Assembly (NCBI RefSeq): GCF_003334335.1
Contig: NZ_QOWQ01000001.1
Direction: 5' to 3' (one strand)
Origin: Escherichia coli
Lineage (GTDB): Bacteria; Pseudomonadota; Gammaproteobacteria; Enterobacterales; Enterobacteriaceae
DNA: 64,000 nt
Shown: in pieces, positions 3,602-63,903 of the stretch
Position numbering within the stretch: the stretch's first letter is position 1
How the letters are laid out: every line of letters starts with the position of its first letter
Translations under genes and position numbers: made by a program
Notes under the pieces: model-generated
What the model was told of the DNA's origin: nothing
Databases searched by the model: none
The model's input: the letters and a program-made list of their open reading frames with translations, nothing else

Positions 3602-3678
<77 letters not shown>

Positions 3679-3887
3679 TCCGTGGATGCGCACTATACTC
3701 CGCTCGCGTTTTCATGCAACCTTTTTTTTACCCCGATCACGGATTTGGCATGATTTTGAACAAAAACAAATCACTAAAGCCTATTTTTTGTGCAAAATTT
3801 GCGTCAGGGAGAGGCTGCTCATTTCATTAAACGCGGCGGTTTGTTATCTTCGTTGCGCCTTATTTTTTAACCTGAAGAAGAGAACAA

Positions 3888-4984
3888 TGAAAGGACGTTG
3901 GGTAAAGTACCTTCTTATGGGCACGGTTGTGGCAATGCTTGCCGCCTGCTCTTCCAAACCAACCGATCGCGGACAGCAATATAAAGACGGGAAATTTACC
4001 CAGCCTTTCTCTCTGGTGAACCAGCCAGATGCCGTTGGCGCGCCGATTAACGCCGGTGATTTTGCCGAGCAAATTAACCATATCCGTAATTCGTCACCGC
4101 GTCTGTATGGCAACCAGAGTAATGTTTATAACGCGGTGCAAGAGTGGCTGCGCGCAGGCGGTGATACCCGCAATATGCGCCAGTTCGGCATTGATGCCTG
4201 GCAGATGGAAGGTGCCGACAACTATGGTAACGTGCAGTTTACCGGTTATTACACGCCGGTAATTCAGGCGCGCCATACCCGCCAGGGCGAGTTCCAGTAT
4301 CCTATTTACCGTATGCCGCCAAAACGTGGTCGTCTGCCGTCTCGTGCGGAGATCTACGCGGGGGCATTGAGTGATAAATATATTCTCGCTTACAGTAACT
4401 CCCTGATGGATAACTTCATTATGGATGTGCAGGGTAGTGGGTATATCGACTTTGGTGATGGCAGTCCGCTTAACTTTTTCAGCTATGCAGGGAAAAACGG
4501 TCATGCCTATCGCAGCATTGGTAAGGTGCTGATCGACCGTGGCGAAGTGAAAAAAGAAGATATGTCGATGCAGGCGATTCGTCACTGGGGCGAAACACAC
4601 AGTGAAGCCGAGGTTCGCGAGCTGCTGGAACAGAACCCGTCTTTCGTCTTCTTTAAACCGCAATCTTTTGCTCCGGTGAAAGGGGCAAGTGCGGTGCCGC
4701 TGGTTGGTCGCGCGTCAGTTGCCTCTGATCGTTCCATTATTCCGCCAGGTACTACCTTGCTGGCAGAAGTGCCGTTGCTGGATAATAACGGCAAATTTAA
4801 TGGTCAGTACGAACTGCGTCTGATGGTGGCGCTGGATGTCGGTGGTGCAATCAAAGGCCAACACTTCGATATCTATCAAGGGATCGGGCCGGAAGCCGGA
4901 CACCGCGCAGGTTGGTACAACCACTATGGACGTGTCTGGGTGCTGAAAACCGCCCCGGGCGCAGGTAACGTCTTTAGCGGCTGA
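3888..4984 (+). CDS. mltA: Membrane-bound lytic murein transglycosylase A (lipoprotein)
   Basis: Real start MKGRWVKYLLMGTVVAMLAACSS (lipobox LAAC) inside the longer artefactual ORF 3458..4984; 365 aa. Confidence 0.9.
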
Positions 4985-5067
4985 TGTGATATTCTGTATG
5001 CCGTTTTTACGGATATGACAGGGTGAGGGGTAACCTCACATCCTGATTATTGACTAAGTGCGCGTTG

Positions 5068-5175
5068 TTCATGCCGGATGCGGCGTGAACGCCTTATCCG
5101 GCCTACAAATCATGCAAATCCAAAATATTGCAGGAGTTATGTAGGCCTGATAAGCGTAGCGCATCAGGCATTTAT
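5068..5175. repeat. REP (repetitive extragenic palindrome) pair, BIME-like
   Basis: gccggatgcggcgtgaacgccttatccggcctaca and inverted tgtaggcctgataagcgtagcgcatcaggca between mltA and tcdA. Confidence 0.75.
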
Positions 5176-5222
5176 GCGTTTAGGGTGAGGGATAACCTCG
5201 CCCTTTTTAATTCTGAGGTGCT

Positions 5223-6029
5223 ATGTCTGTGGTAATTAGTGATGCATGGCGTCAGCGTTTTGGTGGCACAGCGCGTCTGTATGGTGAAAAAGCGTTGCAA
5301 CTGTTTGCTGACGCGCATATTTGTGTGGTTGGTATCGGTGGTGTCGGTTCCTGGGCGGCGGAAGCGCTGGCGCGCACGGGGATTGGCGCAATCACGCTTA
5401 TCGATATGGATGATGTGTGCGTCACCAATACCAATCGGCAAATTCATGCCCTGCGCGATAACGTTGGGCTGGCAAAAGCGGAAGTTATGGCGGAGCGTAT
5501 TCGCCAGATTAACCCGGAGTGCCGTGTAACGGTGGTGGATGATTTCGTGACGCCGGATAACGTAGCGCAGTATATGAGCGTGGGTTATTCGTACGTGATT
5601 GATGCCATTGATAGTGTACGGCCCAAAGCGGCGCTGATTGCTTATTGTCGGCGCAATAAAATCCCACTGGTCACAACCGGTGGCGCGGGTGGGCAGATTG
5701 ATCCGACGCAGATTCAGGTTACCGATCTGGCGAAAACGATTCAGGACCCGCTGGCGGCGAAGTTGCGCGAGCGCCTGAAAAGCGATTTTGGCGTAGTGAA
5801 AAACAGTAAAGGTAAGCTCGGCGTGGATTGCGTGTTTTCTACTGAAGCGCTGGTGTACCCGCAGTCAGACGGTACGGTGTGTGCGATGAAAGCCACGGCA
5901 GAAGGGCCGAAGCGGATGGATTGTGCATCTGGATTTGGCGCGGCAACGATGGTGACCGCCACCTTTGGGTTTGTTGCGGTTTCTCATGCGCTGAAGAAGA
6001 TGATGGCGAAAGCGGCGCGTCAGGGTTAA
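5223..6029 (+). CDS. tcdA: tRNA threonylcarbamoyladenosine dehydratase (CsdL/TcdA), ThiF/MoeB-like E1 fold
   Basis: 268 aa; Rossmann motif VVGIGGVGSWAAEALARTGIG; position next to csdE-csdA. Confidence 0.9.
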   Translation: MSVVISDAWRQRFGGTARLYGEKALQLFADAHICVVGIGGVGSWAAEALARTGIGAITLIDMDDVCVTNTNRQIHALRDNVGLAKAEVMAERIRQINPECRVTVVDDFVTPDNVAQYMSVGYSYVIDAIDSVRPKAALIAYCRRNKIPLVTTGGAGGQIDPTQIQVTDLAKTIQDPLAAKLRERLKSDFGVVKNSKGKLGVDCVFSTEALVYPQSDGTVCAMKATAEGPKRMDCASGFGAATMVTATFGFVAVSHALKKMMAKAARQG

Positions 6030-6079
6030 ACAATCAGGTCGGATGAGACGCGAACGTCTTATCCGACCCGGTTCTGTGC

Positions 6080-8163: not shown

Positions 8164-8369
8164 AAAAAAAAGCACCGCAATTAGGCGGTGCTACATTAAT
8201 CACTATGGACAGACAGGGTAAATGTACAGGAAGTGAAAAAAGGTAGCTTTGCTACCATGGTCTGAATCGCAGACCAATTGCAAACACAACAACACAACAT
8301 CACAACCGTAAGCCAAAAGTTCACCAGAACACGCATTCCGATAAAACTTTTCGTTCCGGCTCAGGAAGT
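8164..8369 (-). ncRNA. gcvB: GcvB small regulatory RNA (Hfq-dependent), divergent from gcvA
   Basis: Reverse complement reads ACTTCCTGAGCCGGAACGAAAAGTTTTATCGGAATGCGTGTTCTGGTGAACTTTTGGCTTACGGTTGTGATGTTGTGTTGTTGTG...GCACCGCCTAATTGCGGTGCTTTTTTTT; G/U-rich target-binding region and terminal hairpin with U-run. Confidence 0.85.
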
Positions 8370-26540: not shown

Positions 26541-26907
26541 GTCGACAGGGAGTCAGACAACGAAGTGAACATCAGGATGATGACACTTCTGCAGGACACA
26601 CCAGGATGGTGTTTCAGGGAAAGGCTTCTGGATGAAGCGAAGAGGATGACGCAGGACGCGTTAAAGGACACCTCCAGGATGGAGAATGAGAACCGGTCAG
26701 GATGATTCGGTGGGTCAGGAAGGCCAGGGACACTTCAGGATGAAGTATCACATCGGGGTGGTGTGAGCAGGAAGCAATAGTTCAGGATGAACGATTGGCC
26801 GCAAGGCCAGAGGAAAAGTTGTCAAGGATGAGCAGGGAGCAACAAAAGTAGCTGGAATGCTGCGAAACGAACCGGGAGCGCTGTGAATACAGTGCTCCCT
26901 TTTTTTA
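26541..26907 (+). ncRNA. csrB: CsrB regulatory RNA (CsrA-sequestering)
   Basis: About 367 nt with no long ORF; many CAGGA(U)G / AGGA hairpin-loop motifs (caggatgatg, accaggatggtg, tccaggatggag, tcaggatgattc, ttcaggatgaag, ttcaggatgaac, aaggatgagc); ends in terminator gggagcgctgtgaatacagtgctccc + T7. Confidence 0.9.
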
Positions 26908-26951
26908 TTCCTGCTATCCTTCGCGGCAGTTTTTCTTATTGAGGTTGCTTT

Positions 26952-63486: not shown

Positions 63487-63652
63487 ATATTGCCGGATAA
63501 ATTAAACGCCTCTGTCAGAAATGATGGGGGCGTTTTTATTTTGCGAGCAGTATTCCTGATTTTAAACGTGAACGCCGCTGGAAGAATTATCAGGTATAGA
63601 ATGGCGTCGGGTGCTTGAGGCTGTCTGGCGTTAAGCATTCGCGAGGTTCCAG

Positions 63653-63757
63653 ATGGACAAAAGCCCCAGGCGATATTTCTATCAACCTGAGGCTTACGTT
63701 CGAACCCAAACAATTCGAATGTTAGTCTCTTCTTTGCAGGGAGGCAAGACATGCTGA
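63653..63757 (+). CDS. Mok-like upstream coupling ORF (34 codons) overlapping the hok-like start
   Basis: atg at 63653 to tga at 63755-63757 ([34 protein letters not shown]); stop overlaps the hok-like ATG (acATGcTGA); arrangement typical of hok/sok loci. Confidence 0.4.
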
Positions 63758-63903
63758 CAAAATATGCCCTTGTGGCAATCATAGTGCTGTGTTTTACAGT
63801 ACTGGGATTCACGCTGATGGTAGGCGACTCGTTGTGTGAGTTGAGTATCAGAGAACGTGGTATGGAGTTTAAGGCAGTTCTCGCTTACGAATCGAAGAAG
63901 TAG
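63751..63903 (+). CDS. Hok-family small membrane toxin (50 aa), below the size cut-off of the ORF track
   Basis: [50 protein letters not shown]: N-terminal TM helix, conserved Cys plus C-terminal AYES(K) motif as in Hok/Gef; preceded by GGAGG at about 63741. Confidence 0.7.

Follow-up and report, generated by a model that had tools for sequence, protein, structure and literature searches.

Background

About 1% of the E. coli genome consists of REP and BIME sequences. BIME-1 elements occur as single copies where transcription units have their 3' ends. BIME-1 elements are composed of a Y and a Z1 unit and a long L linker that binds IHF (PMC3333891). RAYT is the only enzyme proposed to move REP doublets (PMC3333891), IS200/IS605-type Y1 transposition produces no target duplication (PMC3333891, PMC2817692), and BIME integration has been proposed to need a target that already contains a REP or a BIME (PMC3333891).

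MITEs such as Correia/NEMIS and ERIC/IRU, which duplicate TA, are flanked by direct repeats of a fixed 2-9 bp. Long (tens of bp) and variable target duplications are produced by IS1634 and IS1549, which are autonomous insertion sequences of unrelated bacteria with DDE transposases; to our knowledge these duplications have not been reported to coincide with a palindrome. The class C group II introns of bacteria insert directly beside a terminator stem-loop in a fixed orientation and leave genes intact, and their retrohoming does not duplicate the stem-loop.

A literature search found no mention of duplicated terminators or of target duplication at BIME-1 borders, the key papers of the 1990s apart. 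The abstract of the 1997 Bachellier paper is said to report 'excisions of a whole BIME-1'. The footprint described below may have been noted in this older literature (Bachellier et al. 1997, Boccard & Prentki 1993, Gilson et al. 1991).

Architecture of the mltA-tcdA spacer

Two similar hairpins bracket a REP pair between mltA and tcdA, and were analysed within a window, the whole 64,000-nt stretch of E. coli DNA, to which all unlabelled coordinates refer. The hairpin pair is very probably a target-site duplication, in which the mltA terminator palindrome was doubled when a BIME-1 inserted. The features of the region are as follows.

3887-4984, plus strand: coding sequence of the upstream gene, mltA, for murein transglycosylase A (open reading frame; RefSeq annotation under an identical 401-bp match).
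5019-5045, plus strand: left copy of the duplicated mltA terminator palindrome (CAGGGTGAGGGGTAACCTCAC-AT-CCTG; direct repeat and fold, with no terminator-like call).
5044-5070, plus strand: left arm of the BIME-1 (TGATTATTGACTAAGTGCGCGTTGTTC), diverged from the family arm AGATTGYTGACAAAGTGCGCGTTGTTC (repeated in genomes; by-eye alignment with loci L005-L007 and the family consensus).
5071-5107, plus strand: Y-type REP or palindromic unit (ATGCCGGATGCGGCGTGAACGCCTTATCCGGCCTAC), read as an iREP ending CTAC (inverted repeat I3; sub-threshold naRNA4 (REP) matches; Y/Z1 composition per PMC3333891).
5108-5140, plus strand: long L linker, the part of the family with the IHF site, diverged (GCAAATCCAAAATATTGCAG) from the consensus GCAAATTCAATATATTGCAG (Rfam ES036/CssrF).
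5141-5171, plus strand: Z1-type REP (GTAGGCCTGATAAGCGTAGCGCATCAGGCAT), a short form inverted with respect to the first REP (inverted repeats I2 and I4; compared with the Z2 units flanking rayT).
5172-5181, plus strand: truncated right arm (TTATGCGTTT), with ~12 terminal nt of the family arm GYCATCAGTCTC missing (comparison with canonical ...GTTTTGCGTTTGCCATCAGTCTC).
5182-5209, plus strand: right copy of the palindrome and T-run (AGGGTGAGGGATAACCTCGCCCT TTTTA), the predicted mltA intrinsic terminator (terminator-like call, fold, conservation).
5223-6029, plus strand: tcdA coding sequence, tRNA t6A37 dehydratase, the downstream gene (open reading frame, annotation, homologues named TcdA).

The hairpins AGGGTGAGGGGTAACCTCAC (5020-5039) and AGGGTGAGGGATAACCTCGC (5182-5201) are direct repeats that are identical at 18 of 20 positions and lie 162 bp apart. 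The repeat search returned 18 nt of each (5020-5037 and 5182-5199, 94% identity with one mismatch, start-to-start spacing 162 bp), and extension to 20 nt by eye gave two differences, a loop G/A (5030/5192) and a stem A/G (5038/5200) that swaps a U-A pair for U·G. The sequence-only reading had described two near-identical motifs in direct orientation around the REP pair, and these were found where it had placed them, with both copies folding (left copy -14.1 kcal/mol, z -2.9; right copy -17.2 kcal/mol, z -4.2). The fold of the whole 238-nt spacer consists of the two hairpins and the REP structure. Both motifs had also been called self-complementary, which holds for the right copy, a clean hairpin returned as a terminator-like call with a 9-bp stem (5182-5204, six G-C pairs) followed by TTTTTAATTC, but not in the same way for the left copy, which is of another length, requires a 2-nt bulge (AT, 5040-5041) for a full stem and has no T-run after it. 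The T-run reported behind the second motif is present (TTTTT) and ends 14 nt upstream of the tcdA ATG (5223), while the mltA stop ends at 4984; mltA of MG1655 is 1098 nt long and ends at the equivalent position.

With up to three mismatches allowed, the 17-mer GGGTGAGGGRTAACCTC had only two matches in the 64-kb window, both of them the hairpins, against 0.09 expected by chance, and the probability that a fixed pair of 20-mers agrees at 18 or more of 20 positions is ~1.6e-9. Chance similarity of the hairpins was excluded on these two values. A 37-mer around the hairpin had a median of one place per E. coli genome, a count that is a lower bound per genome as BLAST misses the 20-nt left copy, yet no other locus appeared. 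The genome-wide search suggested for the motif therefore gave a match in E. coli at the mltA-tcdA locus only, and a dispersed GGGTGAGGGRTAACCTC family was rejected, there being two matches in the window and one place per genome by the 37-mer. A further direct repeat, GCCGTTTTTA / GCCCTTTTTA, was considered as part of the duplication and was also rejected, since its first copy belongs to a separate small hairpin (CCGTTTTTACGG, 5002-5013) that is kept in both filled and empty alleles; this hairpin lies just past the mltA stop and its tail resembles the terminator tail by chance.

By composition, the insert at 5044-5181 is a BIME-1 (RIP/RIB) with a Y REP, an L linker, a Z1 REP and short arms. The unit at 5071-5107 is presumably Y (...GCGGCGTGAACGCC...CTAC) and that at 5141-5171 presumably a short Z1 (GTAGGCCTGATAAGCGTAGCGCATCAGGC), as judged by eye against consensus sequences and the Z2 units of rayT. 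The two units are inverted, their arms pairing as inverted repeats I2 and I4, and are separated by a long conserved L linker, where Rfam ES036/CssrF scores 46.5 bits (gathering score 37.6) at 5106-5148. Aligned with the L motif of 60+ elements, the linker shows three substitutions in its 20-nt core, and the predicted IHF-site core (ATCCAAAATATTG) is by eye farther from WATCAANNNNTTR than the family consensus is. The insert is a single extragenic copy at a transcription unit's 3' end, where it follows the mltA stop (4984) and precedes the tcdA start (5223). The non-REP stretch to the left of the first REP (31 bases) was found at a median of five places per E. coli genome with 85-93% identity. 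The insert therefore resembles described BIME-1 elements in its inverted Y/Z1 units, L linker, extragenic position at the mltA 3' end and arms common to other copies, and differs from them in its truncated right arm and diverged L motif.

The right arm stops at GCGTTT, ~12 nt short, which is atypical for the family, and this truncation is common to the window, E. coli E69 and Escherichia sp. MOD1-EC7003. At the left junction, the six bases between CCTCA and GATT are CATCCT here and TCTCCT in E69, neither of which matches the end of the palindrome joined to a canonical element (...TTTC followed by AGATTG). Because the right arm is truncated and the left junction is non-canonical, a later rearrangement must be assumed and the exact length of the duplication at mltA-tcdA is uncertain, with 20 nt as its minimum and 23 nt as a possible value. 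The odd structure shared by the window, E69 and MOD1-EC7003 traces all three back to a single old insertion. Both E69 and MOD1-EC7003 have A at the loop position of either copy, and the stem position is A in all E69 copies and in the internal MOD1-EC7003 copies while the terminal MOD1-EC7003 copy beside tcdA has G. These states indicate that some of the differences between the copies in the window arose after insertion.

Several other features were observed in the window. One initiator tRNA-Met gene (3602-3678) lies between amiC and mltA as compared to three in tandem in MG1655 (metZ, metW, metV), the spacer being ~220 bp shorter, which shows that this DNA does not come from K-12 MG1655. A single degenerate REP-like palindrome (GGTCGGATGAGACGCGAACGTCTTATCCGACC, 6030-6079) with a weak sub-threshold naRNA4 match is located between the convergent tcdA and csdE. 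Rfam matches at gathering score to GcvB (8164-8369), CsrB (26550-26909) and the sok antitoxin RNA (63609-63766) are expected landmarks of this chromosome region.

Filled and empty alleles at mltA-tcdA

A megablast comparison of positions 4900-5300 with 5,426 complete E. coli genomes found the locus in all of them. The long allele was present in 2,752 of the 5,426, and the remainder matched over 239 rather than 401 bases, so that the short alleles are shorter by exactly 162 bp, which is the repeat spacing. All nine of the short alleles that were read had one hairpin and a T-run, and these nine lacked the entire stretch that begins behind the left copy and closes with the BIME. Comparison with strains lacking REP sequences at this site, proposed as a check on the motif, thus showed that roughly one E. 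coli genome in two is shorter by exactly 162 bp and has one hairpin with a T-run.

The mltA-tcdA spacer of Salmonella enterica includes a single hairpin, AGGGGTGAGGAATAACCTC(G/A)CCTTTTTTT, immediately ahead of tcdA, as far from the tcdA start as its E. coli counterpart, and no BIME-1. One copy is therefore the older state, and the stem-loop is an old conserved feature of the mltA 3' end. The alternative earlier description of the locus, a terminator pair around an inserted REP unit, was essentially correct, both as to the insertion, which is absent in about half of E. coli, and as to two copies of a terminator stem-loop, but did not hold for two terminators, as the T-run is on the right only. 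The hairpin pair is a target duplication and not two independent terminators.

Other states of the spacer were also seen. In L079 and L080 (Salmonella enterica, both at 1410-1446), the conserved hairpin is preceded by another palindrome, GCCCGATAACGCGATCGCTATCGGGC, which follows the mltA stop and is absent from E. coli. A third spacer state is found in an Escherichia relative, where the Logan contig L081 (1-70, TcdA 97% identical) has a REP that adjoins tcdA on its upstream side, and no terminator hairpin separates the two; as it starts inside the REP, the contig was left out as a closer outgroup.

Three hairpin variants, given as (loop, stem), were seen in the empty alleles: (G,A), (A,A) and (A,G). 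They are spread over more than one flank haplotype, and Salmonella also segregates for the stem A/G change. The differences between the copies (loop G/A, stem A/G) were considered as proof of secondary excision and rejected as such, the same states being found on different flank haplotypes and in Salmonella, which makes recurrent mutation or recombination possible. It is nevertheless plausible, with a probability somewhat short of even, that the filled allele is the older one within Escherichia and that the ~49% of genomes with empty alleles represent secondary precise deletions between the 20-nt repeats, the duplication itself still having come from insertion. The same atypical insertion in E. 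coli, E69 and Escherichia sp. MOD1-EC7003, and hence its age, would agree with this order of events, as would the derived loop G shared by the K-12 left copy and a B2-type empty allele with an identical left flank, and the repeats demonstrably recombine into tandem arrays. Homologous recombination between strains could, however, also move the loop G, Salmonella is empty, and the empty alleles are diverse, with at least two flank haplotypes of which one has several private SNPs, as would fit a long-lived ancestral allele.

The same footprint at other BIME-1 sites

Three paralogous elements were read, at yqjF-yqjG, mngB 3' and mscK 3'. Each had the left arm AGATTGYTGACAAAGTGCGC..., two REPs with the L linker and the right arm ...GCGTTTGYCATCAGTCTC, and each was bracketed by two direct copies of its own local GC-rich palindrome with a T-run after the right copy. 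A scan for the L-motif core in one genome per species returned 67 loci, almost all in Escherichia and Pseudocitrobacter, and most of these appeared by eye to have the same arrangement. Removal of orthologues left 37 sites, 18 of which had both arms at the canonical distance.

The footprint was defined as a direct repeat between the 40-nt outer flanks that abuts both element ends within 4 nt. It was found in 12 of the 18 non-orthologous two-armed sites and in 3 of 306 permuted pairs, in which the flanks came from different sites (binomial P ~1e-20), while no clear abutting repeat was present in the other 6 of the 18. Duplications were 17-31 nt long and spanned the whole stem-loop (-5 to -18 kcal/mol), with a T-rich tail after the right copy. 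The T-run was on the right-arm side in all six one-directional terminator targets, mltA-tcdA included (P = 0.03). Canonical elements were 150-151 bp long with the terminal inverted repeats AGAYTGNTGACAAA. Filled and empty alleles were again found within E. coli, the yqjF-yqjG element being filled in 78 and the mscK-rsmS element in 3,881 of the 5,426 genomes, and the empty alleles of both had one palindrome. A general footprint, the structure-defined duplication of terminator palindromes, is strongly supported statistically.

Individual sites varied. Two Pseudocitrobacter loci (L020 and L025) have a canonical BIME-1 with only a 7-nt flanking repeat, ATGCTAT, and no hairpin, and are an exception to the palindrome rule. 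An orthologous BIME-1 insertion after the hairpin AAAGCCGGAAGAACATTCCGGCTTC is found in E. albertii, E. coli SCPM-O-B-8794 (L010 and L031) and E. coli E69 (L036), where the right copy of this hairpin is kept in E69 and missing in the other two, a later loss of one duplicate.

Tandem expansion

In Escherichia sp. MOD1-EC7003 (L071:13900-14685, minus strand) at least five tandem 162-bp units of BIME-1 plus hairpin precede tcdA, and the contig starts inside this array. The array shows unequal exchange to be promoted by the direct repeats. A duplicated target has also led to amplification in Escherichia sp. E1V33 (L043), the second such case, with a tandem arrangement of two hairpin-element units and a final hairpin that includes three near-identical 30-nt hairpin copies, AGGCCAGCCAGTAACATTACTGACTGGCCT. 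The 20-nt repeats thus destabilise the locus by slippage or unequal recombination, which allows tandem arrays to form, and deletion back to one hairpin would be expected by the same route. Long tandem BIME arrays with L-type linkers, up to five L motifs within 600 bp, were also seen at two further MOD1-EC7003 loci (L073 and L074), so that BIME-1-like units are not always single-copy in this lineage.

Comparison with described mobile elements

As in the REPIN/RAYT system (TnpA_REP, a Y1 HUH transposase), a REP doublet here acts as a discrete unit, carried by some strains and missing from others, and is subject to tandem amplification. The targets in this case are ordinary terminator palindromes, which are duplicated, and the arms are absent from the rayT flanks of MG1655. 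Absence of target duplication is expected of REPINs, whereas duplications were found at mltA-tcdA, yqjF-yqjG, mscK-rsmS and other sites.

The likeness to MITEs includes a length of ~151 bp, the inverted ends AGAYTGNTGACAAA, an intergenic location, filled and empty sites and a flanking direct repeat, and the 155-bp Correia element is also alike in having an internal IHF-type site. A direct target repeat at both ends together with a single copy in empty sites was found at mltA-tcdA, yqjF-yqjG and mscK-rsmS. Defined inverted ends are a feature of the canonical members of 150-151 bp, while in the window copy the right end is cut short and the left junction is scrambled. A fixed duplication length was not found, the length being 17-31 nt (7 nt at one site) and tracking the size of the palindrome. 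BIME-1 therefore differs from MITEs in that its duplication is of variable length and equals a whole palindrome rather than a fixed 2-9 bp, and in having no known parent insertion sequence or transposase.

The duplications resemble those of IS1634 and IS1549 in extending to tens of bp and varying by event, and differ in that the BIME-1 duplication coincides with a palindrome. The oriented, terminator-adjacent insertion is shared with class C group II introns, although BIME-1 is without a ribozyme or reverse transcriptase.

Mechanism of insertion

Insertion with duplication is favoured because deletion removes repeats and cannot create local ones at many unrelated loci. The ancestral mltA-tcdA spacer had one GC-rich palindrome with a T-run, the mltA intrinsic terminator. 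On arrival of BIME-1 as a discrete unit, the palindrome would have come to flank it on both sides over its full 20-23 nt. The two strands would be nicked at opposite bases of the stem or cruciform, which staggers the nicks across the palindrome, and the defined ~151-bp unit would be joined at the staggered nicks with subsequent fill-in synthesis. The length of the duplication would then be set by the structure of the target (17-31 nt) and not by a fixed spacing. We infer that staggered-cut insertion with fill-in is the likeliest mechanism, at about even confidence, because the duplicated stretch covers the palindrome symmetrically and varies in length with palindrome size. The constant length and terminal inverted repeats are as expected of a discrete mobile unit. 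No cognate transposase with matching ends was found in the rayT flanks of MG1655, which contain Z2 and Y REPs without BIME-1 arms and lend no support either way to a link with rayT.

An unlikely alternative route to the same event is replication template switching (FoSTeS/MMBIR-like), which would involve no transposase. A strand would stall after the palindrome, switch to a donor BIME-1 via homology in the T-tract that follows the donor's left hairpin copy, copy the element, and return to the A-rich base upstream of the target palindrome, which would be copied again. Hairpins are obstacles to replication, and the duplications start and end in A/T residues at the palindrome base (e.g., AAACGAGG...CCTCGTTT) that are possible microhomology; the imprecise junctions at mltA-tcdA and the lack of a cognate transposase in the rayT flanks also count towards such a route. 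The constant length and precise ends (150-151 bp) would not be expected from microhomology jumps, though, and there were no chimeric donor/target hairpins among the sites read. Orientation relative to the T-run was also uniform, 6:0 among unidirectional targets.

It is far less probable that the hairpins are the outer motif of a mosaic element, i.e. a new BIME module, and that the short alleles are without the whole composite, as was proposed in the sequence-only reading, where the hairpins were parts of a composite mosaic repeat. The hairpins are symmetric at both ends of the REP pair and extra-REP motifs are known in BIMEs (PMC3333891). Against this, the motif occurs in E. coli at mltA-tcdA only, one copy is left in every empty allele that was read and in Salmonella without any REP or BIME, and the other BIME-1 copies are bracketed by different, unrelated local hairpins, so the mosaic reading was rejected. 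Chance likeness or convergence of two independent stem-loops, such as tandem terminators selected for efficient termination, can be dismissed, for while tandem terminators are known in bacteria and both copies fold, an 18/20 match at fixed positions has a probability of ~1.6e-9, the loop sequence that is free to vary is common to both copies, the left copy is without a T-run, the indel length is exactly one repeat spacing, and the same pattern is found at other loci.

Termination of mltA and expression of tcdA

An intrinsic terminator on the mltA sense strand comprises a GC-rich stem-loop directly followed by a T-run, an arrangement found in the right copy and not in the left. The right copy is the predicted mltA intrinsic terminator and should still terminate. 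The left copy, now separated from the T-run, probably amounts to no more than a stem-loop within the mltA 3' UTR, since there is no T-run behind it to make it a terminator. Transcripts of mltA would pass the left stem-loop, which has no U-tract, continue across BIME-1 and stop at the right stem-loop, which is followed by a U-tract. BIME-1 would accordingly lie within the predicted mltA 3' UTR, which agrees with its linker being an Rfam 'sRNA' family. A consensus scan of the spacer found no tcdA promoter, and as the tcdA start is only 14 nt past the T-run, expression of tcdA may be dependent on read-through.

Significance

REP and BIME sequences were discovered forty years ago, and the literature still describes their route to new sites as unknown (PMC3333891; 2026 preprint), and a reproducible insertion footprint makes BIME spread testable. 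The footprint, a ~151-bp unit in one orientation with a whole terminator stem-loop at either end, names the target and predicts the product of a de novo insertion, and is a constraint that the favoured Y1-transposase model does not satisfy. Locally, it explains a common polymorphism, the 162 extra bases in the mltA 3' UTR upstream of tcdA in half of E. coli strains, and why the mltA-tcdA spacer can grow into tandem arrays. Taken alone, mltA-tcdA is an old BIME-1 insertion of the ordinary kind, in a genome that has been well studied, and if the older BIME papers already give the flanking repeats, the finding is a clean, well-documented example of a known polymorphism. A structure-defined duplication fits neither RAYT/IS200-type transposition, which produces none, nor ordinary DDE transposition, in which it is fixed and short. 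We tentatively suggest, with distinctly less than even confidence, that BIME-1/RIP elements are, or once were, true mobile units that home to terminator palindromes and duplicate the whole stem-loop (17-31 nt, as defined by its structure) through an undescribed insertion chemistry. If this is true, the footprints would be usable to date and count BIME-1 insertions across the Enterobacteriaceae.
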